Source of the DNA: an uncultured Coriobacteriia bacterium
Lineage (GTDB): Bacteria > Actinomycetota > Coriobacteriia > Coriobacteriales > QAMH01
Assembly: GCA_902475535.1 (NCBI GenBank)
Contig: CABRZR010000006.1
Location: 22,720 to 86,719 of the forward strand
Direction: 5' to 3'
DNA length: 64,000 bases
Shown here: in pieces, positions 32,853 to 63,113 of the stretch
How positions within the stretch are numbered: position 1 is the stretch's first letter
Layout: each line of letters starts with the position of its first letter
Program-made: the position numbers and the translations under genes
The notes under the pieces: generated by a model
Database searches by the model: none
What the model saw: only the letters and a program-made list of their open reading frames with translations
Told to the model about the DNA's origin: nothing

Positions 32853-32861
32853 ATGAATCGA

Positions 32862-35174: not shown

Positions 35175-35211
35175 AAGCTGCCGTATACGTAAGTACGACA
35201 GCCAAATTTGG

Positions 35212-36609: not shown

Positions 36610-36714
36610 CGGACCCTCTCCCTTTGAAAAGGCAAACGAGAACTGTAAGGGCGCAGGAGGACGTTTCCCCCTGCGCCCATATGACGGCGCGAGACGAACT
36701 AATCTGTGGCAGGG

Positions 36715-38034: not shown

Positions 38035-38227
38035 GCGTGCTCCCCTTTCGTAAAGACCTCCATGCGCCCCAAAACAAACTGCTCCATGTGCGGGAGTCCG
38101 ATATCGCGAGGCGCCTTCCCATCTGCATCTACGCCCGTGCAAAGCATTGCGATCGACACGATCGGGTTACGGGAAGATGCATGTATCCCATCTAAGGGAA
38201 ATGGTATGGCCGGCAGGAAACGGCGCT

Positions 38228-38249
38228 CAATAACGCACAAATAAGTTAG
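38228..38249 (-). promoter_or_regulatory. Cluster motif copy S2 (CAATAACGCACAAATAAGTTAG) with adjacent perfect palindrome CTTACCAAAAGGTAAG (38252-38267)
   Basis: It shares CAATAACGCAC with S1. In gene orientation it reads CTAACTTATTTGTGCGTTATTG, with a TAAC-N10-GTTA dyad. It lies between the ene-reductase stop (38333) and the MHS start (38034). Confidence 0.5.
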
Positions 38250-38332
38250 TCCTTACCAAAAGGTAAGATATGGAGGGGAAAGGCTCCCCGCCTCGAGCAA
38301 GACGAGAAGTCCTCGAGCAGTGGATCAAGCGA

Positions 38333-40393
38333 CTAAATCCGGCATGCAGCCTCTCTGCCATCGATGATGGCGTGCTTGACGAACGCGTTATCGCCTCCCA
38401 GCGTGGAGCCAATCTCCACGACCTCGACACCCGCGTTCCTGAGCTCATCGCAAAACGCGGCATCGCGCTTCTCGGGAAGCATGACGAGAACGCTGTCGCA
38501 GCCAAAGGTGCGCTCCCTGCCATCCACCTCCGCAATGACGAGACCCTTGCGGATCTCCTTGCATGTGGCATTGCGCACGACCTCGACGCCGTTTTCCTCG
38601 AACCAGGGCTCCAAGCGCACCTTGTAGGGCACGGGAACCAATCCGCCGATGTCATCGTCTTCCGAGAGCAGCGTGACGTCCTTTCCGCAGTGGGCCATGA
38701 ACGTTGCGCACTGCGCGCCCTCGGCACCGGCACCCAAAACGACTATCTTCTTGCCCACGGGCATGAAATGCCTGCTCGCCTTGTGTATGAACTCGGGACT
38801 GAAGAGCTTGAGCGGGAGTTTCGCGAGCTTCGAAAGCCCGGGGATGGTGTACACGTTGCTGCCGTCGATACCGGGAATGTCGGGAATCAGATATGGCGAG
38901 CTGTTGGCGAGCATGACCACATCGGGTTTTTCTCGCCTGACGAGCTCTGCCGAGACCTCCTCGTTGAGATGCACCCGCACGTCGTACTTGCCCACCATGG
39001 TGGTGAGGTAATCGTAGATGGGCATGATGTCCTCGACCTTGTTGCCCTTGATCATCGATGCCAGCTTGAGCCTGCCACCCAGCTCGCCGGACCTCTCGTA
39101 CAAGTCCACGTCATGACCGCGAGCCGCCGCGTCAATGGCCGCCTGCATGCCAGCAGGACCTCCGCCGATGACCATTACCTTCTTCCTTGTCTCAGCGGGC
39201 TTGAGCTCGAGCTCCTTCTCGCGCCCGAGCGCGGGATTCACGCGGCAGATACGCGGTGAGACGAGCGGGTCCTGACACGACCCGCAGCGATTGCACCGGC
39301 GAATCTCGTCGATGCGTTCCTCCTTCACCTTGTTGGGAAACTCGGGGTCTGCCCATAGATAGCGGCCAAAGCCGATGATATCGGCATAGCCTTCCTCGAG
39401 CGCGCGCTCGCCCTTGACCTCGTCCATACGACCGACGCACACGACAGGCACCTTGACGGCATCGTGGATGTACTTTGCCGCCGGAAGCAGCAGTCCCATG
39501 TCCTCGTAGTCCTTCATGTAAGGACGCATGTGGGGCTCGGGGTCGGGATACGGAAAGTAATCCGGAATGAAGCGGAACGGAAGCTCGCCATAACCATATC
39601 CGGTCACGCTGATGTATTGGTATCCAATCATCTCGAGCGCTATGGCGGTGTCGCGCGCCATGTCGGGCGTGATACCGTTATTTCCCGTCAAGGGCGAGAA
39701 CTCGATGCCGTTGATGCGCGTGCCGATGAGAAAGTCGGGACCGCATGCCTGCCGAATCATCTGGTAGAGCTCTGCCATGACACGCGTGCGATTGGCCACG
39801 TTCTCGAAGGCATACTCGTCATCGCGCTTGTTCCATATGGGGCTGAGGAAGCTGTTGAGCAGGTATCCATGTGCGGCATGCACCTCGACACCGTCAAATC
39901 CGGCCTTCTTCATGCGCACGGCGCCCTCGACGATGAGCTTCTCCTTCTCGTGAATCTCCTCGACCGAGAGCCCGCGTGTCGCGCGCCCCTCGGGTTCGGG
40001 AATGGGAAGGTCCTCGGTCTCAATTGTCGACGAGCTGAAGGGTCGCCCTTCGCCGAGCACGGCCGCGGAAGGCCCACCATGGTGGAGCTGGCCTATGATA
40101 TAGCTGTCATGGCGATGCACGGCCTCCGCGAGCTCGGTCAAGCCCGGGATGAACTTGTCATCCCAGACGTTGCAGTAGCGCCCGGGCATGTCATCCCACA
40201 TAACGCCGCCGATGACCACGGCCGCCGCGCCGCCTGCGGCGATGCTCTCGTACAAACCGATTGCCGCGCTTCCATCGGCGGTGCCGTCATCGTTCCAGCG
40301 AAACGTTGACTGGCCCGTCTTCATGATGCGGTTCTTGAAGATAATCTTCGGCGTGATCTCCAGCGGAGACATAAGTTTTTCGAAGCCACCCAT
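38333..40393 (-). CDS. FadH/OYE-type Fe-S flavoenzyme (NADH:flavin oxidoreductase / enoate-reductase family), paralog A
   Basis: 686-aa ORF. The OYE TIM-barrel signature is HAAHGYLLNSFLSPIWNKRDDEY. The Cys cluster is CNRCGSCQDPLVSPRIC. Two dinucleotide folds are present (VMVIGGGPAGMQAA and VVLGAGAEGAQCA). Confidence 0.88.
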   Translation of the reverse strand: MGGFEKLMSPLEITPKIIFKNRIMKTGQSTFRWNDDGTADGSAAIGLYESIAAGGAAAVVIGGVMWDDMPGRYCNVWDDKFIPGLTELAEAVHRHDSYIIGQLHHGGPSAAVLGEGRPFSSSTIETEDLPIPEPEGRATRGLSVEEIHEKEKLIVEGAVRMKKAGFDGVEVHAAHGYLLNSFLSPIWNKRDDEYAFENVANRTRVMAELYQMIRQACGPDFLIGTRINGIEFSPLTGNNGITPDMARDTAIALEMIGYQYISVTGYGYGELPFRFIPDYFPYPDPEPHMRPYMKDYEDMGLLLPAAKYIHDAVKVPVVCVGRMDEVKGERALEEGYADIIGFGRYLWADPEFPNKVKEERIDEIRRCNRCGSCQDPLVSPRICRVNPALGREKELELKPAETRKKVMVIGGGPAGMQAAIDAAARGHDVDLYERSGELGGRLKLASMIKGNKVEDIMPIYDYLTTMVGKYDVRVHLNEEVSAELVRREKPDVVMLANSSPYLIPDIPGIDGSNVYTIPGLSKLAKLPLKLFSPEFIHKASRHFMPVGKKIVVLGAGAEGAQCATFMAHCGKDVTLLSEDDDIGGLVPVPYKVRLEPWFEENGVEVVRNATCKEIRKGLVIAEVDGRERTFGCDSVLVMLPEKRDAAFCDELRNAGVEVVEIGSTLGGDNAFVKHAIIDGREAACRI

Positions 40394-40413
40394 GGATTGA
40401 TTCCTCCAATGTC

Positions 40414-41160
40414 CTAGAACAGCGTGAAGCCGCCATCCTCAACCAAGGTCTCGCCGGTAACGTAGGAAGCGTCGTCACTTGCCAGGAACAGCGCGACGTT
40501 TGCGGCCTCCTCGGGAGCGCCATAGCGGCCCATGGGAATGTTGGCGAGAAACTGCGCGTTGCGCTCGGGGTCATTCCTCGTGCCCTCGGTAATGCGCGTC
40601 ATGCTCGTGCCCGGCCCGAAGGCATTGACGCGGATTCCATGTTCGGCAAGCTCCAAGGCGAGCCATTTGGTCAGCTGGGACACACCCGCCTTGCTGGCGG
40701 CGTACGCGCCGGTGTTCTTGGAGACCGTGCGCGACGTGCATGAGCTCGTGTTGACGATGGCACCCTTGATTCCGCGTTCGATCATCGACTTCGCCACGGC
40801 CTGGTCCATCCAAAAGCATCCATTGAGGTTGATGTCGATGACGCGCCGCCATTCCTCCTCGGTCGTGCTCTGCACGCTCCCGCGTTTGATGATGCCCGCG
40901 TTGCTGAAAAGGATGTCGATATGCCCGTATGCCTCGAGCACCTCGTCTACCACCTTGTTGCACATGGCGTAATCGGCAACGTCGAGGGGATAGATCGTGA
41001 TGTTCTCGTTGCCCTCGAATTCGCGTACCAACGTGTCACCCTCGATATCGAGCGCCGCAACCTTGGCACCCTCTTCGAGAAGGCGGCAGACAATGCAATG
41101 GCCAATGCCGTTTGCCGCGCCCGTCACCACGGCCACTTTATCCTCGAACCTCTTGCCCAT
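40414..41160 (-). CDS. Short-chain dehydrogenase/reductase (248 aa)
   Basis: Motifs AVVTGAANGIG, SNAG and catalytic YAASKAG. It lies 20 nt upstream of ene-reductase A and 24 nt downstream of the HxlR gene. Confidence 0.88.
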   Translation of the reverse strand: MGKRFEDKVAVVTGAANGIGHCIVCRLLEEGAKVAALDIEGDTLVREFEGNENITIYPLDVADYAMCNKVVDEVLEAYGHIDILFSNAGIIKRGSVQSTTEEEWRRVIDINLNGCFWMDQAVAKSMIERGIKGAIVNTSSCTSRTVSKNTGAYAASKAGVSQLTKWLALELAEHGIRVNAFGPGTSMTRITEGTRNDPERNAQFLANIPMGRYGAPEEAANVALFLASDDASYVTGETLVEDGGFTLF

Positions 41161-41184
41161 CGTTTCTCCTTACCTTTAGCTGGT

Positions 41185-41676
41185 CTATTCTTCTGCCTCG
41201 TCCTCGTCACACGCGGTGTCGAAGTACCAGACAATGTGCTCGCGCGTCTTATCGATCTTGCCGTCCTCACCCCCGGTGCCGTATTCGAGCTTCCCATCGT
41301 TGAGGGAGCCCTTCGTTTGCTTGAGTGCCTCAACCGAGAAGTTGCGGTGCACGACGCCCCAATCGCGAATGAGATACAGGAGGTTTGCCATGCTGATGCC
41401 GTCTGGCGTGAGGAGATAGTCGACCCACAGGGGCTTGTCTTCGACCACGACACGTTCGAGCATGCCCGTCTCCTCGAGCTCGTTGAGATGCTGCGAGAAC
41501 ATCTTGTCCGATATCTTGTACGGGATGATTTTCTTGAGCTCGCCGTAGCGCGCACGTTGATGAGGTTGCAAGCTCAGGTACCAGATGATGAACGGCTTCC
41601 ACTTGCCACCCAAGATCTTTGTGAGGACCTGCGTAAGCATGCATGAGGTTAACCTGTCGATACTGTTAGGATCCAT
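41185..41676 (-). CDS. HxlR-family winged-helix transcriptional regulator with an approximately 60-aa C-terminal extension
   Basis: The ORF was trimmed to the ATG at 41674-41676, 8 nt after GGGAGG. The HxlR signature is LGGKWKPFIIWYL...RYGELKKIIPYKISDKMFSQHLNELEETGMLERV. It is the first gene of the HxlR-SDR-ene-reductase run. Confidence 0.85.
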   Translation of the reverse strand: MDPNSIDRLTSCMLTQVLTKILGGKWKPFIIWYLSLQPHQRARYGELKKIIPYKISDKMFSQHLNELEETGMLERVVVEDKPLWVDYLLTPDGISMANLLYLIRDWGVVHRNFSVEALKQTKGSLNDGKLEYGTGGEDGKIDKTREHIVWYFDTACDEDEAEE

Positions 41677-41947
41677 CACAATCGCCTCCCGAGCCACGCC
41701 ATTACCTCGACCGGCCTCTGGTCAAAGACACTCACGGAATCCCTGCGCAATAGAGATGCAAGGAGATTATTATTGCCCCCCCCTGAAAGCAATCACAGAG
41801 CCAGGGGGTTTGTGGTAGATACAGGACCGAAGATATGTCCTCATCGACGCCTGCCCTTCCCCGTCTATAACGACATGGGGCCGGACTCGTCGAGCCCGGC
41901 CCAAACCACCACACTTCAAGCTAGGTTCGCTATCTGGCAATGGCAAG

Positions 41948-42643
41948 CTAGAGTATGTCGTGTACCTCGGTAAGATACGTGTTAATCGCACCGATGAACT
42001 CGCTGCCGTGCTGCGACGTCCTCTTGAACTCGGGAGAGTCGTAGCATTCGTTGAAGGCATCCATGTTCTCGAACCAGAACTCGACGACGCCCTCGACAGG
42101 AAGCTCGTCATAATGGACGGAAACGCCGTTGACGATGCGATCGATCACGAGATTCTGCGCATAGCCAACGTAACCCGGCATGGTGTGCACCATTTCGGTG
42201 TGAACGTCCCACCACTGGTACATCCACTCCTCGGCGCTCACGCCCTCGGCTCGACCCATGAACGACACGCGCTTGATAAGCGGCTTGTCGCCATTCAACA
42301 AGTATTTGGGAGTGTGTTTCACGAACTTCTTCACGCAAACGAGAATGGGATTATGCGGGTCGGCGAACTTCGGAACGTCATCGGCACCCTTGCCGTCTAA
42401 CGACATGACGCCCTCGACCATGTCGCCATAGCTATCAAACTGCAGCTCGGAATAGCCATCGATGATGATGGGACCCTGGCCCAAGGGATGACGATGCTCG
42501 TTGTCGCATACCGCGTGCTGAGAGTAATGGCGCAGGTTCTTCATCTCCGCGGCGATGGGACCATGGACGTTGAGCCAGTAATCCTTGAATTCTTCCTGCG
42601 TCGTGCCCTCTTTGCGCTTCAAGAGACCCATTCTGCTAATCAT
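41948..42643 (-). CDS. Tandem EthD-domain protein (paralog 3 of 3)
   Basis: 231-aa ORF. The N-terminus MISRMGLLKRKEGTTQEEFKDYWLNVHGPIAAEMKNLRHYSQHAV closely follows the EthD-family consensus as I recall it. A second EthD-like half follows. It is divergent from ene-reductase B. Confidence 0.7.
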   Translation of the reverse strand: MISRMGLLKRKEGTTQEEFKDYWLNVHGPIAAEMKNLRHYSQHAVCDNEHRHPLGQGPIIIDGYSELQFDSYGDMVEGVMSLDGKGADDVPKFADPHNPILVCVKKFVKHTPKYLLNGDKPLIKRVSFMGRAEGVSAEEWMYQWWDVHTEMVHTMPGYVGYAQNLVIDRIVNGVSVHYDELPVEGVVEFWFENMDAFNECYDSPEFKRTSQHGSEFIGAINTYLTEVHDIL

Positions 42644-42719
42644 GTGTGACCACTCTCCTTAGACACCTTCATGTAGTCCTGCCTTCTTCCAAGATTCTAG
42701 AAACGGGATTACGCCGAAA

Positions 42720-42741
42720 CAATTACGCACTTAAAAGTAAG
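42720..42741 (-). promoter_or_regulatory. Cluster motif copy S3 (CAATTACGCACTTAAAAGTAAG)
   Basis: It lies about 80 nt upstream of the EthD paralog-3 start. In gene orientation it reads CTTACTTTTAAGTGCGTAATTG, with a TTAC-N10-GTAA dyad. Confidence 0.55.
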
Positions 42742-42791
42742 AGGAGACATGGGAAGTCCCCCGTCATCTCATCGAAGGCTGCGTAGAAGCG

Positions 42792-42813
42792 CTAACAATA
42801 AAGTGCGTACTTG
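42792..42813 (+). promoter_or_regulatory. Cluster motif copy S4 (CTAACAATAAAGTGCGTACTTG), oriented toward ene-reductase B
   Basis: It is inverted relative to S3, 50 bp away, and about 75 nt upstream of ATG 42888. Its orientation relative to the downstream gene is the same as for S1-S3. Confidence 0.5.
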
Positions 42814-42887
42814 GAATGCCCCTATCACGCTCCCTATGATGACAGCCGCACGAACGCATAGTCCCGTGTTGGCCGTCGAAAGAGGAT

Positions 42888-44954
42888 ATGATGCAAGAAT
42901 TCGAACATCTCATGTCACCCATCGAAATCGCCCCGAGCTTCAAGATGAAGAACAGGATCATGAAGGCGCCTCAGTCAACATGGAGGTGGAATCTCGATGG
43001 TACCGCCGATGGCAGCGCGGGCATTGACCTATACGAGAGCATGGCCAAGGGCGGTGTCGGTGCCATCGACATAGCCGGCATCAACTGGGAGCCGCCGGTA
43101 GGTGGCGGCATCTACCTCTGCGCCTACGATGACAGGTTCATCTCGGGCCTCACCGAGCTTGCCGAGCGTCTGCACAAGTACGATTGCCGCGTGATCGGCC
43201 AGCTCCATCATGGCGGTCCGCTCGCTCCCGTGCAAGGCGGCGGCAGGCCCATCTGCGCCTCGACGCTCGAAATAGAGGACCTTCCCACCCCTCCTCCCGA
43301 GGGACTCGCGACCCATGGTCTCACGCACGACGAGCTCATCGAGAAACGCCAGCTCATCGTCGATGCAGCCGTACGCTTATGGAAGGCCGGTTTTGATGGC
43401 GTGGAAATCCACGCGGCCCACGGTTACTTCCTCAACAGCTTCCTCAGCCCCATTTGGAACCACCGCGATGACGAGTACGGCCCCCAGACGGCCGAGAGCC
43501 GCACGCGCATCATGAAGGAGATTCATGACATGGTACGCGACGCATGCGGGCCGGACTTCGTCATAGGCACGCGCATCAACGGCCAGGAATGGTCTCCGCT
43601 CGTCTCGGGCGGCATCACGCCCGAGCTCGCCGTCAAGAATGCCAAGGCCCTCGAATCCTATGGTTACCAGTACATAAGCGTATCGGGATATGGATACGGC
43701 AAGCTCCCGTTCCGCTACTGTCCCGACTACTTCCCCTACCCCGATCCGGAATCCTTCATGGAACCCTATATGGAGGATTTCAACGATCTTGGCATCCTCA
43801 TGCCGGGAATCCGAGCCGTCAAGGAAGCCGTTAACGTTCCGGTCATCGGCGTCGGCCGCATGGACGAGGTCAAGGGCGAGCGCGTGCTGCGAGAGGGATA
43901 TGCCGATATCATCGCCTACGGGCGCTACCTCTGGGCCGATCCCGAGTTCGCCAACAAGGTCAAGGAGGGTCGTACCGACGAGATTCGCCGGTGCAATCGC
44001 TGCGCGAGCTGCGAGGATCCCGTCACGTCCCCTCGCATCTGCCGCGTGAACCCCGCGCTCGGACGCGAACGCGAACTCGAGCTCAAACCCGTCGAGACAA
44101 GCAAGAAGGTCATGGTGATCGGCGGTGGCACGGCGGGAATGCAATGTGCGCTCGATGCCGCCGAACGTGGATTCGACGTGACGATATACGAGAAGAAGGG
44201 CGAACTCGGTGGCCGCATCAAGCTCGCCTCCATGATAAAGGGCGACAAGGACGAAGACGTCATGCCGCTTTTCGATTACCTCACCACCATGATCGAGAAG
44301 TCCAACGTCACCGTCAAGCTCAAGACCGAAGTGACATTGGACCTCGTGAAACGCGAGAAACCGGACATCGTCGCGCTCGCAGACAGCTCTCCCTACTTCA
44401 TTCCCGACATCGAGGGCATCGACCGAAAGAACGTCTTCACGATACCGGCAATGACCAAGCTTGCCTCCATCCCCATGAAGATGTTCGGTCCCAGAAAGCT
44501 CGCGACCATGAGCGAAAAGGTCTTTCCCGTCGGCAAGAAGATCGTGATTCTGGGTGCCGGCGCCGAGGGAGCCCAATGCGCGACGTTTTTGGCTCATCGC
44601 GGGAAGGAAGTCGTCCTCCTTGCCGAGACCGAAGACGTTGGCGGCCTCGTGCCCCAAAAGTACAAGGTACGCCTCGTTCCGTGGTTCGAGGAGCATGGCG
44701 TGCGCATCGTCTATAACTCGCAACTGCTGCGCATCGAGAAGAAGTCGGTGACTGTCGAAGTCGATGGGAAAGCCGAGGAAATTGCCTGCGATAGCGTGAT
44801 GGTCATGCTTCCGGAACAACATGACCCCAGCTTCTACGAACAACTCGTGCAGATCGTGCCCGAGGTCTACGAAATCGGCTCGACACTCGGAGGCGACAAC
44901 GCCTTCCTGAAACATGCGATGCTCGACGGACGCTTGGCGGCCGTGAAGATGTAA
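42888..44954 (+). CDS. FadH/OYE-type Fe-S flavoenzyme, paralog B
   Basis: 688-aa ORF. By eye, 41 of the first 66 aligned residues are identical to paralog A. It has the same Cys cluster spacing (CNRCASCEDPVTSPRIC) and the same dinucleotide folds (VMVIGGGTAGMQCA, VILGAGAEGAQCA). Confidence 0.88.
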   Translation: MMQEFEHLMSPIEIAPSFKMKNRIMKAPQSTWRWNLDGTADGSAGIDLYESMAKGGVGAIDIAGINWEPPVGGGIYLCAYDDRFISGLTELAERLHKYDCRVIGQLHHGGPLAPVQGGGRPICASTLEIEDLPTPPPEGLATHGLTHDELIEKRQLIVDAAVRLWKAGFDGVEIHAAHGYFLNSFLSPIWNHRDDEYGPQTAESRTRIMKEIHDMVRDACGPDFVIGTRINGQEWSPLVSGGITPELAVKNAKALESYGYQYISVSGYGYGKLPFRYCPDYFPYPDPESFMEPYMEDFNDLGILMPGIRAVKEAVNVPVIGVGRMDEVKGERVLREGYADIIAYGRYLWADPEFANKVKEGRTDEIRRCNRCASCEDPVTSPRICRVNPALGRERELELKPVETSKKVMVIGGGTAGMQCALDAAERGFDVTIYEKKGELGGRIKLASMIKGDKDEDVMPLFDYLTTMIEKSNVTVKLKTEVTLDLVKREKPDIVALADSSPYFIPDIEGIDRKNVFTIPAMTKLASIPMKMFGPRKLATMSEKVFPVGKKIVILGAGAEGAQCATFLAHRGKEVVLLAETEDVGGLVPQKYKVRLVPWFEEHGVRIVYNSQLLRIEKKSVTVEVDGKAEEIACDSVMVMLPEQHDPSFYEQLVQIVPEVYEIGSTLGGDNAFLKHAMLDGRLAAVKM

Positions 44955-45041
44955 GTGCGCTCGGTCTGGGGCATATAAGAGCGCAGCGTCCCAAGAGCAT
45001 AGGCGCCACAGGTGTTGGCCTGCCAGCCAGCACGTCACTCC

Positions 45042-45087
45042 GGGCGGGTGAGGGTCCCTCCTCCTCACTCGCCCCCTCCTTTTTTTA
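45042..45087 (+). terminator. Probable intrinsic terminator of ene-reductase B
   Basis: The stem GGGCGGGTGAGG / CCTCACTCGCCC pairs at 11 of 12 positions. It is followed by CCTCC and then a T7 run (45080-45086). Confidence 0.5.
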
Positions 45088-45089
45088 CG

Positions 45090-45488
45090 TTACCAACCTA
45101 CCGTGCGCTTGGAGCCATCTGCCAGAGACTCGAAGGTCGCCGTCGCGTTCTTGAAGTACAGAACGATGGTGTTGTCGTCGTTCTCGTCGTACATGCCACG
45201 CAGCGCGGGATAGTTGTCGAGCATGTGCTTCTTGGCCTCGACACTGTCATCGGGTACGAGCTCGCCGGAAAGACGCAGCCACTCAGGGCCGACACAGGCA
45301 CATATCTCGACCTGCGGATGATCCACAATCTGCCGGTAGACCTTCTTGGACTTGCCCGTCTGGATATACAGCTTGCCGTCGTACAGGTCGACGGTGCCGA
45401 AGGGACGCACACGCGGCTCGCCGTTCTCGACCGTTGCCAGGTAATACGTGGGTGCCTTTTCCTTGAGAAACTCGTAGACCTCGTCCAT
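45090..45488 (-). CDS. Pyridoxamine-5'-phosphate-oxidase-like FMN-binding split-barrel protein
   Basis: The ORF was trimmed to the ATG at 45486-45488, 6 nt after AAGGAG, giving 132 aa. The sequence begins MDEVYEFLKEKAPTYYLATVENGEPRVRPFGTVDLYDGKLYIQTGKSKKVYRQI, typical of the small PNPOx-like family. Confidence 0.7.
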   Translation of the reverse strand: MDEVYEFLKEKAPTYYLATVENGEPRVRPFGTVDLYDGKLYIQTGKSKKVYRQIVDHPQVEICACVGPEWLRLSGELVPDDSVEAKKHMLDNYPALRGMYDENDDNTIVLYFKNATATFESLADGSKRTVGW

Positions 45489-46970: not shown

Positions 46971-47010
46971 CAAAGAAAAGGAGGGAACGCGGACAAGCCG
47001 CGCTCCCTCC
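46971..47010 (-). terminator. Intrinsic terminator of the transporter/molybdoenzyme operon
   Basis: The stem GGAGGGAACGCGG / CCGCGCTCCCTCC pairs at 12 of 13 positions, with a 5-nt loop ACAAG. On the minus strand it is followed by TTTTCTTTG. It lies 37 nt after the LctP-like stop. Confidence 0.65.
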
Positions 47011-47046: not shown

Positions 47047-48675
47047 CTAGGCGGGAATCGTGATGGCGAATATCTGGGACATGATTACCGAGATGGTCAC
47101 CAACACAAGGGCATAGGGAAGCACCTTGCGCAGAACCTGACTTTCGGCACCGACCTCGTCAAGCGAAGCAGCAGACTGCTGGAGCTTCACCGGCGTGATG
47201 ACGGATGCAAGGCCGGCGGCAATGCCACCGGACGCGATGACCGCCAGCGGATTCAAGCCGAGATCCTGTGCGGAAATCAGGTTGTAATTCGCGAACAGCG
47301 CGATCGTCGAGGTCTCCGAACCAGTCACGAAGCCGGCGAGCAGACCGAGGAAGCCGTTGGCAACCGGATACCACCAGCCAAATGCCGCAGCGGCGGAATG
47401 CGCCCACAGCGCGATGATGTTGGTGTCCTGATTCGCGGGATCGAGGAACCACGTCTCGACACCAGCGGCATTGACGCCAAACTTGTAGCCCGAGTACATC
47501 ATGACGTAAGCGATCATGAAGTAGACGATGGAGCTGATGGTGGGCGGAGCCCAGCGCTTGTTCCACTTCTTGAGGATGGTTCCCCAACTCGAACCATTAC
47601 GCGGCTTGAGCCAGATGGCGGAGATGAGGGTCGAGATGAGCACCCAGAAGTAGGCGTTCCAGATCACGCGCATGGGCTGACCGGCATCGCCAGGCCACAG
47701 GATGACGCGCATCTCGAGCGGACCAGAGTACAGGATGTCCTTGAGCGGACCAACGAAGTTGGTGATCACGCAGAAGAAGATAAGAAGACCCCAGGGAAGC
47801 AGAGCTTTCCAGAGCGGGATTTCCTTCTCGAGCTCCTTGTCCTCTTCGGTCAAACCCGACCTGTCGAAGAACTGGATGCCACGTATCTTCATGTAGAGCA
47901 GCATCACGACCAGCGAGCACGCGCCACAGAGAACGCCCATGAGAACGATGGACTGCGGAACGAGATGGCTGAACATGAACGCGAAGCCACCCATGCACAG
48001 ACCAGTGATCAACGCAGGCAGCCAACCTTGCTTGAGCAGCTTGGCACCACCTGCCATGAAGAGCATGGCGAGGCAGATGCACGGCGTGATGACAGGCAGG
48101 TAATTGGTGAAGTACTGCGCAACAACTTGCAACGTCGGAGCCGTACCGTCTATCATCGTGAAGCCGGCGCCAGTCAGGATGTCCGTAAGCGTGACGACGG
48201 TCGCGCCCAACATGGCAAACGTGCAAAGCGAATCGTAGCCGATGCAAGGCAGTGCAACGGCGATGACGGTCGTGTAGCCCAAGGCGAACATGATCGGCGG
48301 CAAGATGATTGCGGGGGTCGCACCCACGCAAACGAGCATCGAGCCGAGGATGACGTTGATGACCATGATCTGGCAGGGCTTGTCGCCATGCGAGAACGTC
48401 TTGATCCAGACAACGACACGTTGCAAGGCGCCGGTTTCCTGCATGAAGGTGATCTGCAGGAGCGCGAAGAATCCCATACCGGTGATCGCCATCGATGCGA
48501 GCAGGCCCTTGAGCGAGGCGAGCAAGCTGAAGACGAAATCGGTATTGAAGAAGAACACCGCGACGGCAATGGTGAGTATCCAGCCCACCGTACCGGTGAT
48601 GTCACCGCGCACCTTGAAGCCGACGATCATCACGATCATGACGATAATCGGTATAAAAGAAATCAGAAGATTCAT
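47047..48675 (-). CDS. LctP-family (L-lactate/glycolate permease family) carboxylate transporter, divergent member
   Basis: 542-aa polytopic ORF. The C-terminal region GFVTGSETSTIALFANYNLISAQDLGLNPLAVIASGGIAAG aligns by eye to the conserved TGSDTSSNALFA...GG.TGK region of E. coli LldP. Confidence 0.7.
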   Translation of the reverse strand: MNLLISFIPIIVMIVMIVGFKVRGDITGTVGWILTIAVAVFFFNTDFVFSLLASLKGLLASMAITGMGFFALLQITFMQETGALQRVVVWIKTFSHGDKPCQIMVINVILGSMLVCVGATPAIILPPIMFALGYTTVIAVALPCIGYDSLCTFAMLGATVVTLTDILTGAGFTMIDGTAPTLQVVAQYFTNYLPVITPCICLAMLFMAGGAKLLKQGWLPALITGLCMGGFAFMFSHLVPQSIVLMGVLCGACSLVVMLLYMKIRGIQFFDRSGLTEEDKELEKEIPLWKALLPWGLLIFFCVITNFVGPLKDILYSGPLEMRVILWPGDAGQPMRVIWNAYFWVLISTLISAIWLKPRNGSSWGTILKKWNKRWAPPTISSIVYFMIAYVMMYSGYKFGVNAAGVETWFLDPANQDTNIIALWAHSAAAAFGWWYPVANGFLGLLAGFVTGSETSTIALFANYNLISAQDLGLNPLAVIASGGIAAGLASVITPVKLQQSAASLDEVGAESQVLRKVLPYALVLVTISVIMSQIFAITIPA

Positions 48676-48863
48676 TACTCATTCCCTCCTATTCAGAATG
48701 AGCGGGTCGTTCGTCGAGCTGCCATTGAGGCCCGCCTTTCCCCATACACGGACCAGACAGCACGCGAATCATCAAGTTTCTAGAACGTAAAACGAAACCA
48801 ATAGCAAGAAGCTGGAGGCTCCCTCCATACCGAAACCTCCAGCTTCGCCAAGCGTAAGACCGC

Positions 48864-49073
48864 TTACTTGAACTTCCTGTCCTGGTTGCGACGCTCCGAC
48901 TCGTCAATGGGCTTATAGGTAGCACCAGCGATGTCGTCGGTAATCACCTTGTCGGCACCACACTTCTTGCAAGTCGGCGCCTCCGCAGCGTTGAACGTTC
49001 CGCACTCAGGGCACTTCCAAAGGATGTTCCCGATTGGGGGCGGCCTAAAACCGCCTTTCATCTGTTGAGACAT
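48864..49073 (-). CDS. Zinc-ribbon mini-protein (69 aa), paralog 1
   Basis: The RBS GGGAGG lies 5 nt upstream. The sequence contains FRPPPIGNILWKCPECGTFNAAEAPTCKKCGA, with two CxxC knuckles. By eye, 17 of 32 aligned residues are identical to the ORF at 52037-52240. Confidence 0.7.
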   Translation of the reverse strand: MSQQMKGGFRPPPIGNILWKCPECGTFNAAEAPTCKKCGADKVITDDIAGATYKPIDESERRNQDRKFK

Positions 49074-49114
49074 AACAACCTCCCAAGCTAGTCAATACTT
49101 ATGCTTGCCTTCGA

Positions 49115-49537
49115 CTATTTGTCCTGGTCCAGCGTGAAAAGGACCATCTTCGGCTTCTCGGCGGCCTTCTTTGCCAGCTCTTCGATCGGGCCATAGAACA
49201 TGACGCCGGACTGGCAATGATGCACGCACATGGGAAGTCGTCCCTCGGCGACGCGGTCCGCGCAGCCATCGCACAGGTCGGTGGGCATCGGAACATACGT
49301 CCACTCCCAGTCGCCCTTGACGTTCTTGGTGGGACCGTACTCGAGGGTCTTGATTCCCCACTGCTCAGCGTCCAGGCCAAGGTGCATCTGGCACGCAATC
49401 TCGCAGGAGTGGCAATCAGTGCAGAACTCGTAGTCAATGAGCAGACCATTCTGGACGGGCTTCGCATTGTAATCCTTGAACTCGGCCCAGTACTTGAATG
49501 CGTCAAAACCACGGTTCATCTCTTCTGCTGTAGGCAT
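49115..49537 (-). CDS. Small 2x[4Fe-4S] ferredoxin-type electron-transfer subunit
   Basis: The ORF was trimmed to the ATG at 49535-49537, 9 nt after GAGGGGG, giving 140 aa. Cys clusters are CTDCHSCEIAC and CDGCADRVAEGRLPMCVHHC. Its start lies 4 nt after the stop of the molybdoenzyme gene. Confidence 0.8.
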   Translation of the reverse strand: MPTAEEMNRGFDAFKYWAEFKDYNAKPVQNGLLIDYEFCTDCHSCEIACQMHLGLDAEQWGIKTLEYGPTKNVKGDWEWTYVPMPTDLCDGCADRVAEGRLPMCVHHCQSGVMFYGPIEELAKKAAEKPKMVLFTLDQDK

Positions 49538-49541
49538 TCTC

Positions 49542-51905
49542 TTACACCCCCTCAAAGCGCGTGAAGTGGAAGCCGGTAAGGGGCTCGGTCGTGATGAGCT
49601 CGGTCTCGCTATGGTCGTTCTCCGGCGTCACCTTGTAGCACTTGCACAGGGTCGACTTGTAGGGAGCACCATAGTGAGTCGGGCCATAGACGCCCATGGT
49701 GGTGAGGTTGTTGGCGTTGCAGTCGAACACGCCATACAGATGCGGCTCGGCCGCCTCCTCCTCGGGGAACCACCAGCCGTGACGGGCACGGACCAGGTTG
49801 GGCATCAGGCCAGGAGCGATGTGAGCCTGCTGCTTGCACCTACCGCGGGGGTTCTCGAACCAGACCCACTCGCCCTCGACGACGCCAAGCTCCTCGGCGA
49901 GCTCGGGCGAGATGTCGCAGATGGCCGTCGGATGAATCTGACGCATGTGCGGCAACTGACGATGCTCGGAGTGGAACAGGCCGATGTGGCGGTGTCCGGA
50001 CGTGTAGATGAGCGGATACTCCTTGAAGAGCTCCGGAGTGCGATACGGCGACTCGTAGGGCTCCATGTGATGCGGCAGCGGATCGAAGCCCCAGACGTCG
50101 AACAGCGGCGAGTAGATCTCGAAGAGACCGGTCGCGGTAACGAAGCCGGGATTGCCATCCTCGCGGAGCAGACCCTTCTCGTACTTGCGATACGTCTCGT
50201 TCCAATCCCACCAGTCGTACACCTTCTCCTTGAGGTCCTGGAAGGTGTAGTCGACGCCGTTGCCCTCGTCCTGGATCATCCAGGTGAGGAAGTCCTCGGT
50301 CGTCTCGAACTGGCCGTAGAACTCGGGGTTGAAGCGCTTGCCCATCGTGACAACGAGCTCTTCGTCAGACTTGCACTCGTAGTAACGACCGGCGGACGCG
50401 GTGATGGTGCGCAGCGGCTGCCACCAAGAACGATAGGAATCGCGCTCGATGGACATTGCCATCGGAAGGACGCAGTCGGCAAATGCGACGGCAGTCGGGG
50501 TCAAGTAGTAATCGGCAACGATCGTGTACTTGATGTTCTTCCATGCCTTGTAGACGCGCGGAGCATCGCCGGCCATGTTGGCAATCGGGTTGGTCTGCTC
50601 GACCCAGATGAGCTGCGGGCGATAGGGGACGCCAGTCTCCATGGCCTCGAGCAGCAGATCGGGCGGGATGAACGGCGTGTAGCCCGCCTTGTGGATCGGG
50701 GACTGCGTCGTGCCAATGCGGCGGTCGAGCATCTCGGGAGAGATGAACTCGAGGCCGGCGCCATACTTCTTGGAGGAGTTGTAGGCGTAGCGAACCAGCA
50801 CGTTGCCGCCAGGAACGTCGAGATTACCGCAAATGGCGACCATGTCGTCAATGGCGTTGGACGCCTCCATGGCGGAAATCTGCATGTCGATGGCAAGGCC
50901 CCACTGAATGCCAGCGGGCTTGGCCTGGGCGTACATGCGGGCGGCATCGATGATGTCCTGCTCCTCGACCCAGCAGATCTCGGCGACCTTGTCGGTCGGA
51001 TACTCCTGGACACGCTCGACGAGCGACTCGAAACCGTAGGCCCACTTCTCGGTCCAGTCATGATCGTACAGATCCTCGTTGATGATGACGTTGAGCATGC
51101 CAAGGGCAAGCGCGCAGTCAGTACCAGGACGAATCTGCAGCCAGATGTCAGCCTTGGAAGCAAGCCAGGTCAGCGCGGGATCGACGACGACGAACTTCGT
51201 GCCCATGCGCATGAGGTCGATGAGCCAGTGGCCCATGAAACCGTCCGGGTTGGATGCGAGCGGCTGGTTGGCCCATACGATGACGACCTCGGGCTTGACC
51301 CACTCCGCATTGTTATAACGGTCGGGGTGCAGCTGGGCGTTATCGAGAATCCAGCAGTCACCTTCCTGCAGCAGGTTCGCGGTCATGCGCGGCTGATAGC
51401 AGGAGTCTGCCGAAAGGAAGCCAAAGGACATGTTCGGCGAACCGAAAGCGGTACGCAGAACCATGGCGCCCTGCCACATGGCGTTACGGCCAGTACCCGA
51501 AAGGGCGACGACGCCCTCGGGGCCGATTCCGCCAAACTCATCACGAATGATGCGGCAGCAATCCTGGAAGGCCTCTTCGATGAAATCGAGAGCCTCGTCC
51601 CAGGTTACGCGCTTCCACTTGTTCGAACCCTTTTCTCCGTCCAGGAGCAGCGGCCATTTCATGCGATCATGGTTGTAGATCTGCTCAACCATGTTGAGAC
51701 AGCGTAGGCAAAGACGACCCTGGTTGTATGCGAAATTGGGATCGCCCTCAACGCGCTCGAGCTTGCCATCCTTTGCGTAGGCGAGAACGCCGCAGCCATT
51801 GTGACAGCCAGGACCAGTCCAAACAGAAGTACGCGTTACCTCGTATCCATCTTCGAACCAACGCCAATCTGTCTTGTACAAGTCTTTGTTCAGCTCATTG
51901 ATCAT
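49542..51905 (-). CDS. Molybdopterin (bis-MGD) oxidoreductase catalytic subunit, no Tat signal (predicted cytoplasmic)
   Basis: 787-aa ORF. The N-terminal Fe-S region is GPGCHNGCGVLAYAKDGKLERVEGDPNFAYNQGRLCLRC. The body has the typical DMSO-reductase-superfamily layout. The N-terminus MINELNKDLYKTDWRWFEDG has no RR motif or hydrophobic signal. Confidence 0.85.
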   Translation of the reverse strand: MINELNKDLYKTDWRWFEDGYEVTRTSVWTGPGCHNGCGVLAYAKDGKLERVEGDPNFAYNQGRLCLRCLNMVEQIYNHDRMKWPLLLDGEKGSNKWKRVTWDEALDFIEEAFQDCCRIIRDEFGGIGPEGVVALSGTGRNAMWQGAMVLRTAFGSPNMSFGFLSADSCYQPRMTANLLQEGDCWILDNAQLHPDRYNNAEWVKPEVVIVWANQPLASNPDGFMGHWLIDLMRMGTKFVVVDPALTWLASKADIWLQIRPGTDCALALGMLNVIINEDLYDHDWTEKWAYGFESLVERVQEYPTDKVAEICWVEEQDIIDAARMYAQAKPAGIQWGLAIDMQISAMEASNAIDDMVAICGNLDVPGGNVLVRYAYNSSKKYGAGLEFISPEMLDRRIGTTQSPIHKAGYTPFIPPDLLLEAMETGVPYRPQLIWVEQTNPIANMAGDAPRVYKAWKNIKYTIVADYYLTPTAVAFADCVLPMAMSIERDSYRSWWQPLRTITASAGRYYECKSDEELVVTMGKRFNPEFYGQFETTEDFLTWMIQDEGNGVDYTFQDLKEKVYDWWDWNETYRKYEKGLLREDGNPGFVTATGLFEIYSPLFDVWGFDPLPHHMEPYESPYRTPELFKEYPLIYTSGHRHIGLFHSEHRQLPHMRQIHPTAICDISPELAEELGVVEGEWVWFENPRGRCKQQAHIAPGLMPNLVRARHGWWFPEEEAAEPHLYGVFDCNANNLTTMGVYGPTHYGAPYKSTLCKCYKVTPENDHSETELITTEPLTGFHFTRFEGV

Positions 51906-52036
51906 GAATGTACCCCCCTTTCATTTCTAACTCTTACTCTTCTCTTACTCTCCACTTGATGGTGCATCTGGCCTGACCTTGATAACCACCTCCCAATAAC
52001 ACGTCCTACCTAGAGCTAGTGCTCGTGAAATCAGTG

Positions 52037-52240
52037 TTAGGCGCCGGGCGCCTTGGGAGCCGCGCCGGGTGCCTTGGGAGCCGCACCGGGAGCGGTGGGA
52101 GCACCAGTGGGTGCAGCCGCATCGGGCTCGGCAAGAGGTGCGCCGCACTTCTTGCAATTCGTCGCCTCAGGCGGATTGAAGGACCCACACTTCTCGCAGG
52201 TCTTCATCATGTCGTCGAACGATGGTGGTCTAAAACACAT
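52037..52240 (-). CDS. Zinc-ribbon mini-protein (67 aa), paralog 2, with Pro/Ala/Lys repeat tail
   Basis: The sequence begins MCFRPPSFDDMMKTCEKCGSFNPPEATNCKKCGA and continues with AAPTGAPTAPGAAPKAPGAAPKAPGA. The tail is encoded by a 21-nt tandem DNA repeat at about 52041-52082. The RBS-like GGGAAGGGG lies upstream. Confidence 0.65.
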   Translation of the reverse strand: MCFRPPSFDDMMKTCEKCGSFNPPEATNCKKCGAPLAEPDAAAPTGAPTAPGAAPKAPGAAPKAPGA

Positions 52241-52276: not shown

Positions 52277-52324
52277 GTTCGCGCATCGATCACATGTGGA
52301 GGGTGGGATAAGCGATGCGCGAAC
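52277..52324 (-). promoter_or_regulatory. 12-bp perfect inverted repeat (leader hairpin or terminator) upstream of the molybdoenzyme operon
   Basis: GTTCGCGCATCG (52277-52288) pairs with CGATGCGCGAAC (52313-52324) across a 24-nt loop. On the minus strand it is followed by GCTTAATTCTTTCG. It ends 36 nt before the zinc-ribbon start codon. Confidence 0.45.
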
Positions 52325-52370: not shown

Positions 52371-52439
52371 CATACTAAAGACCAGGTCTGTGGCGTTTTA
52401 GTATGTCTGGTACTAGGGTGCTTTCGGCAAAGACCAGAC
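52371..52439. promoter_or_regulatory. Cluster of dyads/repeats (CATACTAAA/TTTAGTATG; TCTGGTACTA; AAAGACCAG x2) upstream of the molybdoenzyme operon
   Basis: 9-bp inverted repeat at 52371-52379 / 52397-52405. TCTGGTACTA at 52406-52415. AAAGACCAG at 52377-52385 and 52429-52437. GTCTGGT/ACCAGAC inverted repeat at 52405-52411 / 52433-52439. Confidence 0.4.
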
Positions 52440-52500: not shown

Positions 52501-52848
52501 TTATTTGCCCTTGACGAAGGCGCGCGCCTTGGGATGAGATGCGAGCCACTCCTCGCTCGGAGGCGTGTTCCTCTCGCACGGCATATCGCCATGATCGTGG
52601 CGGGGCGATTTGGAATTGCCGCACGGGTAGGCGCAGATGTATCCAGAGTAATTGCATTTGACGGGCTTGGGACGAACCGTATCGGTCAAGTCCTCCCCGC
52701 ATCCCTTGCAAACGAGGGGGTCTTTGGAGAGAACGCGTTCCCTTTCGAAGATATTGAGCGTGCCGCATGCCGGGCACGTCGCGGACTTGAGAGGTGCCGG
52801 CTGGCACTTTCCACACATCGGATTGCAGATCCAACATCCACCAGGCAT
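52501..52848 (-). CDS. Cys-rich protein with zinc-ribbon module (third member of the local zinc-ribbon family)
   Basis: The ORF was trimmed to the ATG at 52846-52848, 5 nt after AAGGGAG, giving 115 aa. The sequence begins MPGGCWICNPMCGKCQPAPLKSATCPACGTLN...VCKGCGEDL...CNYSGYICAYPCG. The CPACGTLN...CKGCG module resembles CPECGTFN...CKKCG of the mini-proteins. Confidence 0.6.
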   Translation of the reverse strand: MPGGCWICNPMCGKCQPAPLKSATCPACGTLNIFERERVLSKDPLVCKGCGEDLTDTVRPKPVKCNYSGYICAYPCGNSKSPRHDHGDMPCERNTPPSEEWLASHPKARAFVKGK

Positions 52849-61475: not shown

Positions 61476-63113
61476 ATGGCTACTTCAGAACACGAGCAGC
61501 AAGACTCAAGCACCGTCAGGATTATCCTTATCAGCATTGGCTTTAGCTTGATGTTGGCATGGCATTACCTCATCCTGTTCTCTCCGGTATTCGGAGACAT
61601 CGGAGCTTTGGGAGAGGTCGACGGGGATTATCTGTTTGCCCGGCAGCTCACACTCTACATCATGATTGCGTTGGCCTTCGGCACCCTGTTGCTGCATGGC
61701 AGATGGCGCATGGCGCATCCAAAGCCTGATAGCCGTCGGACGGCATACATCTACATCATCGGCATGTTCTCGCTTGCCGTCGGAACCCTCTATGTTCTGG
61801 GGCCGCATCTGGAGCTTCCGTTCCCCGTGCGACTGGCTCTCATCGGCATACTTGGAGTATTGCAGGCAATCATGATGGTCCTCTGGATGCGATGCCTGAT
61901 GAAGCAGCATGATGGGCACGTGCTTTCCTCATTTGGCATCTACATGATTTCCGGAGGGACGATCGCCGTAATCGTTTGCTACTTCCAGTGGCCCATATCG
62001 CTTATCGCGGCAGTCATCCTTCCCTTTGCCTCCTCCCTCATCCTCGCATACATCAAGACGATGAACGTGCGCAGCGAAGAGAGAGGCGAATATGAGAAGG
62101 ACGGCAACGACGAGAACGGTCTCGGAGATGCCAATCATGAGGAGAACGGAAAATCTTCCATCCAGGAAGACAAGATCACGAAGGCAAGAAACGTCCGCCT
62201 CATTTTGTTCTCGGGCGTCTTTGCCTTTTCCTTTGGATTGCTCCAGGGATCGTTCATCATCGTGAACATCCCCATCCTCATCGTCACGAACGCCGCCGTG
62301 CTTCTTGGCCTCGTCTGCGCGGGCCTCATCATTCACCTGCTTCCTAAAAGCACCAGTGCGATTCTTGCCGTCGACCTCATGCATCGCTATTCCGTAATCC
62401 TCTTCATTACGGGCACAGCCGTGATCATGTGGTACAACATGGGCCGCTTCCCCATGGTCGTGTCGCAAATCGCCCTGCTCGCTGGTTTCAACCTCTTCGA
62501 TTTTGGCCTTTTCGTCTTTGGCGTCGAGGGAAACTGGAACATGAAGAACCAAGCTCCCGGTTGTGACCTCGCGCGTCCCGTCGTGTACCTCTCCATGTCG
62601 TTGGGTCTGCTCATCGGGTACCTTATCCTCAGGCTCACGCCAGGTTCCTCGATGTTCCAGTCTTTGCTTGTCATCTGCGGAGTCTGCATCATCATGATTG
62701 TCGCCACCACGCTCTTTCCCCTGCTCAGGCACAGTGGCAACAAGACCTCGAACACGGAGGAAGACGGCGAGGGAGCGCGTCTGGAGGGCTCTGTGACCAG
62801 TCCTGCGGTGATGAGCCTCTCCGCATTTCCCACATCGACGAGCACTCTGGAAGAACTCGAGTCCCGTCCGGTGTCGCCCTGGAAGAACGCTTGCCGCGAG
62901 ATTTCGGAACAATACAGGCTCTCCCCACGAGAGACCGAGATCTTCTTCCTCATCGCACGCGGTCGAAATGCGGATTACATACAGAAGGAGCTCGTCATCT
63001 CTCCGCACACCGCCAAGACCCATATCGCGAACATCTACCACAAGCTCGACGTCCACTCCGCGCAGGAGCTGCTCGATCTTGTCGAGGAATGCAAGTACGC
63101 GCGACGTGCCTAG
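61476..63113 (+). CDS. Polytopic-membrane LuxR-family transcriptional regulator
   Basis: 545-aa ORF with about 10-12 TM helices. The C-terminal LuxR-type HTH is LSPRETEIFFLIARGRNADYIQKELVISPHTAKTHIANIYHKLDV. Confidence 0.88.
   Translation: MATSEHEQQDSSTVRIILISIGFSLMLAWHYLILFSPVFGDIGALGEVDGDYLFARQLTLYIMIALAFGTLLLHGRWRMAHPKPDSRRTAYIYIIGMFSLAVGTLYVLGPHLELPFPVRLALIGILGVLQAIMMVLWMRCLMKQHDGHVLSSFGIYMISGGTIAVIVCYFQWPISLIAAVILPFASSLILAYIKTMNVRSEERGEYEKDGNDENGLGDANHEENGKSSIQEDKITKARNVRLILFSGVFAFSFGLLQGSFIIVNIPILIVTNAAVLLGLVCAGLIIHLLPKSTSAILAVDLMHRYSVILFITGTAVIMWYNMGRFPMVVSQIALLAGFNLFDFGLFVFGVEGNWNMKNQAPGCDLARPVVYLSMSLGLLIGYLILRLTPGSSMFQSLLVICGVCIIMIVATTLFPLLRHSGNKTSNTEEDGEGARLEGSVTSPAVMSLSAFPTSTSTLEELESRPVSPWKNACREISEQYRLSPRETEIFFLIARGRNADYIQKELVISPHTAKTHIANIYHKLDVHSAQELLDLVEECKYARRA

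Follow-up and report, generated by a model that had tools for sequence, protein, structure and literature searches.

A probable DOPAC-type catechol dehydroxylase operon with an LctP-family transporter and zinc-finger microprotein genes in an uncultured Coriobacteriia bacterium

We analysed a stretch of 64,000 nucleotides (hereafter the window) from contig CABRZR010000006.1 of the uncultured Coriobacteriia bacterium assembly GCA_902475535.1, and particularly the genes that surround a molybdoenzyme of bis-MGD type (bis-MGD stands for bis-molybdopterin guanine dinucleotide). According to our analysis, it is likely that this locus is a catechol dehydroxylase operon for 3,4-dihydroxyphenylacetate (DOPAC) or a substrate of that type, with a catalytic subunit that is an ortholog of Dodh of Gordonibacter pamelaeae 3C and works as described for it. 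The enzyme class and the Dodh operon are already known; what would be new is the LctP transporter, the previously undescribed zinc-finger genes and the occurrence of the whole unit in another genus.

The catalytic subunit of 787 aa (49542..51905, minus strand) carries the Molybdop_Fe4S4, Molybdopterin and Molydop_binding domains of Pfam, so the bis-MGD assignment of the original prediction, which had been made from the sequence letters, is borne out. Its identity to Dodh is 80.8% (787/788 residues) and to Cldh 45.6%, both reference sequences being taken from the Figure 6 source alignment of the eLife 2020 study (PMC7028382). One database cluster (P0004) is Dodh itself (99.5%), and graded relatives link it to the window protein. 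In a neighbour-joining tree of 43 sequences (Kimura distances, 200 bootstraps), which holds Cldh and uncharacterised paralogues, with Gp Hcdh, Gs Vadh and Eadh not represented under their own names, the window protein, Gordonibacter Dodh, a Raoultibacter homologue and two homologues from Coriobacteriales metagenome-assembled genomes (MAGs) form one clade in 200/200 replicates, and the window protein's own 16-member subclade is recovered equally often. Outside the Dodh clade the next relatives are 56-71% identical to the window protein, a Firmicutes homologue is at 64%, and Cldh, two other G. pamelaeae dehydroxylases or paralogues and a Desulfitobacterium homologue are at 46-49%. The field treats as the same enzyme those proteins which share at least 75% identity with 90% coverage (PMC7028382), or elsewhere 75% with 85%, and the window enzyme exceeds both pairs of thresholds; gene carriage at the 75% cut-off also tracked DOPAC metabolism in isolates (PMC7028382). 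The best match among solved structures is acetylene hydratase (2e7z, E=1.9e-68). Taken with the identity to Dodh and the fully supported clade, this agrees with the earlier proposal of a catechol-dehydroxylase or acetylene-hydratase-related system, for which a phylogeny had been named as the check.

The gene neighbourhood leads in the same direction. The order of Cys-rich open reading frame (ORF), first zinc-finger gene, dodh, ferredoxin gene, second zinc-finger gene and transporter gene recurs in a Gordonibacter-type contig that carries a 99.5%-identical Dodh, in Raoultibacter contigs and in 20 genome loci. In G. pamelaeae 3C the corresponding tags are C1877_13890 (MFS transporter), 13895 (hypothetical), 13900 (4Fe-4S partner), 13905 (dodh) and 13910 (hypothetical), and all five are induced by DOPAC, with a log2 fold change (log2FC) of 10.1-11.2 in one experiment and of 7.1-7.3 in the other, while the neighbouring LuxR gene (13920) and 13915 rise by only about 3.4. 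The Gordonibacter type of dehydroxylase has been described as smaller, free of a signal for twin-arginine translocation (Tat), probably soluble, and accompanied by a small 4Fe-4S partner and an adjacent MFS transporter (PMC7028382), and the class was named in JACS 2025 (PMC11887054). The window enzyme has the size (about 770-800 aa), no RR motif, a small 4Fe-4S protein, no anchor and an adjacent transporter, with LctP in place of the described MFS. The layout pointed out in the original prediction, with no Tat signal, a small ferredoxin, no anchor and a neighbouring carrier, is therefore not novel, being the one that already defines a published type (PMC7028382; PMC11887054).

There is no Tat signal. 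The N-terminus (MINELNKDLYKTDWRW...) lacks a twin arginine as judged from the sequence, and the ORF opens at the first start codon past an in-frame stop, so that a longer N-terminus is impossible and a revised start cannot yield one. The redox partner named earlier also stands: a ferredoxin gene of 140 codons (49115..49537, minus strand) begins with an ATG 4 nt past the TAA of the catalytic gene, and its eight Cys in the layout CxxCxxCxxxC ... CxxC-x11-CxxxC are predicted to hold two [4Fe-4S] clusters. The protein resembles one of DmsB type that has kept only the first and the last of its Cys groups, and its matches to Pfam Fer4_9 and Fer4_11 and to the NCBIfam DmsB C-terminal model all fall below cut-off. 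Ferredoxins follow dodh in all loci, at 64-100% identity to that of the window, which itself corresponds to the co-induced C1877_13900. No NrfD- or DmsC-like membrane anchor is encoded anywhere in the conserved block, as had been claimed. Among the window ORFs scanned, no hydrogenase, formate dehydrogenase or Rnf was found as an electron-donor system.

From this analysis it would be logical to suggest the following course of events. The LctP permease would carry DOPAC, or a nearly identical catechol carboxylate, across the membrane, and the cytoplasmic enzyme would reductively strip the para-hydroxyl group, giving 3-hydroxyphenylacetate and water at the expense of two electrons and two protons. 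The electrons would pass from the two-cluster ferredoxin to the [4Fe-4S] cluster of the enzyme and further to its Mo (or W) centre. Expression would probably respond to the substrate, driven by a promoter that lies ahead of the first zinc-finger gene, as the Gordonibacter RNA-seq suggests. Both zinc-finger microproteins and the Cys-rich protein belong to the same conserved unit. DOPAC dehydroxylation as such was demonstrated in Gordonibacter cultures and lysates, the assignment of the enzyme there being genetic and transcriptomic.

The Fe-S motif of the catalytic subunit had been singled out as unusual, with the first canonical Cys missing and an additional one after the last. Both features are present: the spacing is C34-x3-C38-x27-C66-x2-C69, and the window enzyme has Gly31 at the first position and C69 as the extra residue. 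The motif is not special to this locus, being a signature of the whole Gordonibacter-type clade found in 167/167 relatives. In this alignment, which reaches down to about 43% identity and includes Dodh and Cldh, C34, C38, C66, C69 and C169 are invariant, as are P32, G33, H35 and R68, and the canonical first-Cys position is always G, A or P. In HMMER alignments with acetylene hydratase and thiosulfate reductase, C34 and C38 fall on the second and third Cys of these enzymes and C66 falls on the fourth; the residue opposite C69 in these canonical enzymes is Ser or Gly. The cluster would thus be held by C34, C38 and C66 and probably by C69, whose status as fourth ligand we judge from its invariance throughout the clade, and a swap of cluster ligands would be the natural reading of the motif. 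The counterpart of C169 in thiosulfate/polysulfide reductase (2vpw) is the conserved Cys, which we take to be the Mo ligand of that enzyme, and C169 is probably the metal ligand here. Acetylene hydratase has its catalytic Asp directly after the second Cys, and at this position the clade has the invariant His35.

The transporter varies between loci. The permease of 542 aa (47047..48675, minus strand) matches Pfam Lactate_perm well above the curated cut-off (E=3e-36, 125.7 bits vs 27, profile positions 2-519/522), as the LctP assignment of the original prediction required, and scores 98 bits vs a cut-off of 341 in NCBIfam lctP; because this second cut-off lies so far above its score, we regard it as a member of a divergent branch of the LctP family (TC 2.A.14). 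The branch is small (67 matches). The permease gene had also been called divergent in orientation, which is not the case: it lies downstream of the enzyme genes on the same strand, as do all genes of the unit. LctP follows the second zinc-finger gene in the window species and in loci L005, L006 and L018, whose enzymes are 95-100% identical to that of the window, as well as in L004 and L023; in L015, with an enzyme at 80%, the LctP itself is merely 56% identical. In L007-L012, L021 and L022, with enzymes at 91-96%, the slot is taken by the Gordonibacter MFS (N-terminus 80-94% identical), which is found in L001 also, and a Firmicutes relative has a gene of the auxin-efflux-carrier (AEC) family there. 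An MFS-type locus nests among LctP-type loci in the tree, at a weakly supported node. Compared with MFS-type loci (L007, L021, L022, L008), the window loses DNA homology at 48864-48870, exactly at the stop codon of the second zinc-finger gene, and homology resumes at about 48702 in LctP-type loci only.

The position reads as a swappable cassette in which the carrier for one carboxylate would have undergone non-orthologous replacement, and both carriers may serve the same carboxylate because LctP and MFS are exchanged among enzymes that are 91-96% identical. The permease stands where Gordonibacter has the DOPAC-induced MFS, and DOPAC is itself an aromatic carboxylate, so the earlier guess of an acidic aromatic substrate, to which a carboxylate transporter would be suited, is supported. 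Such a swap may be used as a natural experiment on which carriers move aryl-acetates. We considered whether this LctP branch constitutes a Dodh-specific transporter family and rejected it, as relatives at 65-70% identity sit in unrelated organic-acid clusters with glutamate-mutase, PrpD and FAD-enzyme genes, and the surroundings of one relative at 43% are unrelated too. Between the second zinc-finger gene and the permease gene, in the non-conserved junction of the cassette, lies a strong hairpin (48802..48850, minus strand; 15 bp, -34.1 kcal/mol, z=-4.27, with 0/200 shuffles folding equally well) whose tail is merely T-rich. It may act in partial termination or in processing or stability, and since it intervenes, the permease may be partly uncoupled in transcription from the enzyme genes. 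The intrinsic terminator that ends the unit (46971..47010, minus strand) is as described before: a 13-bp stem with 10 G-C pairs at 47010-46980 is followed by the T tract TTTTCTTT, with a fold z of -3.34.

Several points weigh against the assignment to DOPAC. The attribution of the activity to Dodh rests on induction, comparative genomics and a quantitative PCR (qPCR) correlation, with biochemical confirmation awaited (PMC7028382), and no later purification of Dodh was found in the literature searched. Tungstate left the DOPAC dehydroxylation of Gordonibacter uninhibited (PMC7028382), so that either Mo or W could be the metal. The enzyme family is described as strictly substrate-specific (PMC11887054), and 81% identity is thus no guarantee of the same substrate, with 19% of residues differing between the window enzyme and Dodh. 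The carrier is an LctP here and an MFS in the Dodh operon. The co-localised regulator of the Gordonibacter type is lacking, as the nearest LuxR-type gene lies about 9 kb off and is merely 32% identical to a dodh-linked one.

The main alternative is that the locus encodes a Gordonibacter-type catechol dehydroxylase for a different catechol carboxylate, for which hydrocaffeate, dihydroxyphenyl-lactate or -valerate and protocatechuate are candidates, and that the LctP carrier reflects the shift. We consider it unlikely. The transporter and regulator context unlike that of Gordonibacter, together with the LctP relatives in unrelated organic-acid clusters, could indicate such a shift, but 96%-identical enzymes (L007, L021) keep the MFS while others at 95-97% carry LctP, which means that the transporter varies without matching divergence of the enzyme. 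Lysate of DOPAC-grown Gordonibacter converted DOPAC quantitatively and acted on hydrocaffeate as well, with conversion below 45%, and specificity in this family is described as shifting between close relatives (PMC11887054), but the identity to Dodh is above the cut-off that followed DOPAC metabolism in isolates. It is very improbable that the enzyme is a non-redox hydratase similar to acetylene hydratase, or a hydroxyl-transferase: acetylene hydratase is the closest solved structure, but the identity is low (23.9% for Dodh), the catalytic Asp beside the second cluster Cys is replaced by the invariant His, the dedicated ferredoxin, needless for a non-redox enzyme, is strictly conserved, and AthL-like transhydroxylases belong to a different domain family. 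A respiratory or assimilatory reductase for formate, thiosulfate or polysulfide, tetrathionate, nitrate or dimethyl sulfoxide (DMSO) is hardly credible, because the Fdh-alpha, PhsA and DmsA models match the enzyme weakly and in part, with scores far under curated cut-offs (the best being Fdh-alpha with 196 vs 666 bits and PhsA with 186 vs 694), no NCBIfam equivalog for formate dehydrogenase or tetrathionate, polysulfide or thiosulfate reductase reaches cut-off for the catalytic subunit, there is no Tat signal, membrane anchor or selenocysteine, and the enzyme falls robustly among Dodh relatives instead of the clades of known function that the original prediction had named as its refutation.

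A DOPAC-type operon remains the reading we prefer. The only partly conserved stretch in the upstream regions of eight Dodh loci, Gordonibacter and Raoultibacter included, is a block at 52372..52420 (minus strand), about 130 nt upstream of the first zinc-finger gene, with TAGTAY half-sites (CTAGTAC ... ATACTA) and a -10-like TAGTAT. Its cross-species conservation is weak, a scan with the consensus sigma-70 promoter gave no promoter on the operon strand, and we put it forward only weakly as a promoter/operator. The presumed 5' leader of the same gene also contains a perfect 12-nt inverted repeat, GTTCGCGCATCG and CGATGCGCGAAC, with arms 24 nt apart at 52277-52288 and 52313-52324. As to the regulator, a membrane-type LuxR protein of 545 aa with a GerE domain is encoded at 61476..63113 on the plus strand. 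Over its full length it shares 32% identity with the dodh-adjacent LuxR of Raoultibacter, and its helix-turn-helix region is 71% identical to that of the Gordonibacter dodh-linked LuxR. The published pairing of regulators with dehydroxylases rests on adjacency, which this gene, about 9 kb from the operon, lacks; we may only tentatively suggest that its product regulates the operon. A Trigger_C-like gene, which adjoins dodh in Gordonibacter and Raoultibacter, was considered as a Dodh chaperone and rejected: in the window it stands beside the trigger factor gene and htpG, 8 kb away, and in Gordonibacter its log2FC is just 3.4, so a housekeeping neighbour is more likely. Recent horizontal transfer of the locus was likewise set aside, as G+C is 0.575-0.588 across locus and flanks, without a compositional signal.

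Besides the transporter cassette, the zinc-finger microproteins deserve particular attention. Their genes belong to a group of three small Cys-rich ORFs which the original prediction overlooked, although the upper limit that it gave to the system, 52240, coincides with the start of one of them. This gene encodes a zinc-finger microprotein of 67 aa, here called ZnUp (52037..52240, minus strand), which heads the conserved block; its paralogue ZnDn, of 69 aa (48864..49073, minus strand), follows the ferredoxin gene. The RanBP2 zinc-finger signature is W-x-C-x2-4-C-x3-N-x6-C-x2-C. ZnDn has GGFRPPP followed by W-x-C-x2-C-x3-N-x6-C-x2-C of RanBP2 type, containing WKCPECGTFNAAEAPTCKKC, and by a charged tail; it passes the Pfam cut-off of Zn_ribbon_RanBP (PF00641, 28.0 vs 27) and that of Zn_ribbon_3 too. 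ZnUp has MCFRPPSF (with an invariant MCFRPP start), the same Cys/Asn spacing (C-x2-C-x3-N-x6-C-x2-C) and a tail rich in Pro and Ala, lacks the Trp and scores 17.7 in PF00641, below cut-off. The FRPP(P) motif of these microproteins holds consecutive prolines.

Both genes accompany the enzyme closely. In every locus of the Dodh clade whose sequence reaches far enough, ZnUp precedes dodh, and ZnDn is 60-100% identical in all loci of this clade. A search of 5.8 billion proteins with ZnDn gave only 33 clusters, the named ones being "hypothetical" save one JGI mislabel. By position, ZnUp matches C1877_13910 (log2FC 10.3 and 7.3 with DOPAC) and ZnDn matches C1877_13895 (10.1 and 7.1), a correspondence drawn from the 99.5%-identical contig L001 instead of the annotated 3C genome. 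When metagenomes were scanned for the ZnUp signature, 97 stretches came up (loci L030-L126), 90 of them with a real MCFRPP zinc-finger ORF; in six of the 90 this ORF is joined to tandem glyoxalase/VOC domains. There are 68 unfused copies for which the sequence extends far enough downstream, and 41 of these directly precede a bis-MGD catalytic gene, which is Dodh-like in 27 cases, similar to the pyrogallol hydroxytransferase large subunit in 13 and of another kind in one. The remainder precede an LctP, CitMHS or MFS transporter gene (8/68), a metallo-beta-lactamase-fold gene (7/68), the gene for the Cys-rich protein (3/68), one for a chemoreceptor (MCP, 1/68), or something else or nothing (8/68). 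Examples of such loci are L052 (752-3427), L063 (2850-5417), L065 (9658-11217) and L096 (1271-2137).

An uncalled ZnUp homologue is also found upstream of the 49%-identical enzyme of Desulfitobacterium hafniense. The locus of this type, L026 (6001-11413), holds the enzyme and ferredoxin genes followed by those of a pterin-binding methyltransferase, a corrinoid protein, a URO-D-type methyltransferase and an MFS transporter, and these O-demethylase genes suggest a possible route for methoxylated aromatics in which demethylation precedes dehydroxylation. The Firmicutes locus L025 has short forms of both ZnDn and the Cys-rich protein. Second copies of ZnDn, 85-96% identical to the first and about 7 kb away from it, occur in two MAG loci, L014 (3481-3687 and 10917-11123) and L017 (6918-7124 and 14334-14540). 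In both loci the copies flank a block of GNAT/methyltransferase, aldo-keto reductase, htpG, tig and Trigger_C-like genes that is inverted relative to the window, as if repeated copies of ZnDn had mediated a rearrangement.

The third gene, a conserved neighbour of Dodh-type genes in Coriobacteriia and Firmicutes, encodes a Cys-rich small protein (52501..52848, minus strand). Its frame is open from 53007 (168 aa), and the conserved part of about 115 aa runs from M54 (MPGGCWICNPMCGKCQP...), which is probably the true start. The protein has the motif CWICNPMCGKCQP... of CWxCNPxCGKC type with further CxxC pairs and no match among Pfam families. In most Dodh-clade loci tblastn places it upstream of ZnUp, with 55-70% identity over the C-terminal 64-76%. 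A homologue of 93 aa (MCWVCNPFCGKCKPP...) is encoded in the Firmicutes Dodh-like locus L025 (9083-9364), and a related ORF of 78 aa lies in G. pamelaeae L024 (456-692, minus strand).

We did not find a mention of the zinc-finger microproteins in the catechol-dehydroxylase literature searched. With due reserve, for we hold it a little less probable than its opposite, we propose that ZnUp, ZnDn and the Cys-rich protein are unrecognised functional parts of cytoplasmic bis-MGD enzymes that transform aromatic compounds. The microproteins could possibly be extra subunits, factors of maturation or cofactor insertion, a rubredoxin-like point of electron entry, or RNA-binding or translation-coupled regulators acting through pausing. 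If this is true, the published two-subunit model of Gordonibacter-type dehydroxylases is incomplete, and the microproteins may account for the difficult heterologous expression of such enzymes.

As to the bacteria concerned, the human-gut MAGs HGM04055 and MGYG-HGUT-04247 encode a 100% identical catalytic protein, Adlercreutzia sp. Marseille-QA1605, whose genome is complete, has one at 93% identity, and the 90% cluster of the catalytic subunit counts 322 sequences, of which the named ones are labelled Eggerthellaceae. The Dodh operon of human-gut metagenomes accordingly belongs not to Gordonibacter only, and an abundant uncultured lineage similar to Adlercreutzia carries it too. The best match to Dodh in a human-gut gene catalogue was 81.7% identical (PMC7028382), and this match, counted in the original dodh prevalence, was probably the lineage of the window. 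The published dodh qPCR forward primer has 2 mismatches at 50770-50789 (minus strand), and the reverse primer fails to match even with 3 mismatches allowed, so the Gordonibacter-based assay probably misses the window lineage, and surveys by qPCR may undercount the DOPAC-dehydroxylase function owing to the reverse primer mismatch. This function is of importance for the host, as DOPAC is a major product of the gut metabolism of dopamine and quercetin-type flavonoids, and its dehydroxylation alters the phenolic acids which reach the host.

Elsewhere in the window, a choloylglycine (bile salt) hydrolase family gene at 6731-7744 (minus strand; CBAH, E=2e-95) is consistent with a gut origin. The region 31899-45488 encodes two flavoenzymes of about 687 aa that combine old yellow enzyme (OYE) and FAD/NAD parts (38333-40393, minus strand; 42888-44954, plus strand), together with three EthD/MmlI-like proteins, two short-chain dehydrogenases/reductases, two MFS transporters, an HxlR regulator and a PNPOx-like protein. 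Polyphenol or isoflavone reductase clusters of Eggerthellaceae look similar, and the flavoenzymes score below cut-off in the BaiCD and bilirubin-reductase models.

Among known systems, the closest to ours is the Dodh operon itself (C1877_13905; UniProt A0A369LV65), which agrees with the window in the length of the enzyme (788 vs 787 aa), the Cys signature, the order of the genes and the absence of a Tat signal and an anchor. Apart from the carrier, the two differ in the ferredoxin, which in the window has an N-terminal extension of about 24 aa relative to the Gordonibacter and Raoultibacter forms of 116-117 aa and does not overlap the catalytic gene, and in the LuxR and Trigger_C-like genes, which are not adjacent in the window but separated by about 8 kb with tig, htpG, aldo-keto reductase and methyltransferase/GNAT genes, two membrane protein genes and the Cys-rich ORF. 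The hosts differ as well, the one being Gordonibacter and the other a separate genus similar to Adlercreutzia with about 58% G+C.

The wider group of Cldh, Gp Hcdh, Gs Vadh and Eadh1/2 shares the cytoplasmic architecture of two subunits and the adjacent transporters, and Cldh, like all 167 relatives, has the invariant PGCH-x2-C ... C-x-R-C motif. Cldh and the two G. pamelaeae paralogues differ from the window enzyme in standing at 46-49% identity, and the paralogue loci (L024) have a LysR-type regulator and no FRPP zinc-finger genes adjoining the enzyme. Gp Hcdh, of the same architecture, has been purified; it holds one Mo per protein, accepts electrons from reduced methyl viologen and supports ATP formation. 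The Eggerthella type (Dadh, El Hcdh, Cadh) has in common with the window the para-dehydroxylation of catechols and the superfamily, but its enzymes are only about 16-22% identical to Dodh, run to about 1000-1200 aa, carry a Tat signal, come with a four-cluster subunit and a membrane anchor, and need TorD-like, helicase and ferredoxin accessory genes (PMC7028382; PMC11887054). Acetylene hydratase of Pelobacter acetylenicus (2e7z) resembles the window enzyme in its three domains, the Cys metal ligand and the absence of a Tat signal; unlike it, acetylene hydratase is a non-redox monomer with no ferredoxin partner, with the canonical C-x2-C-x3-C...C motif and an Asp where the window clade has His35.

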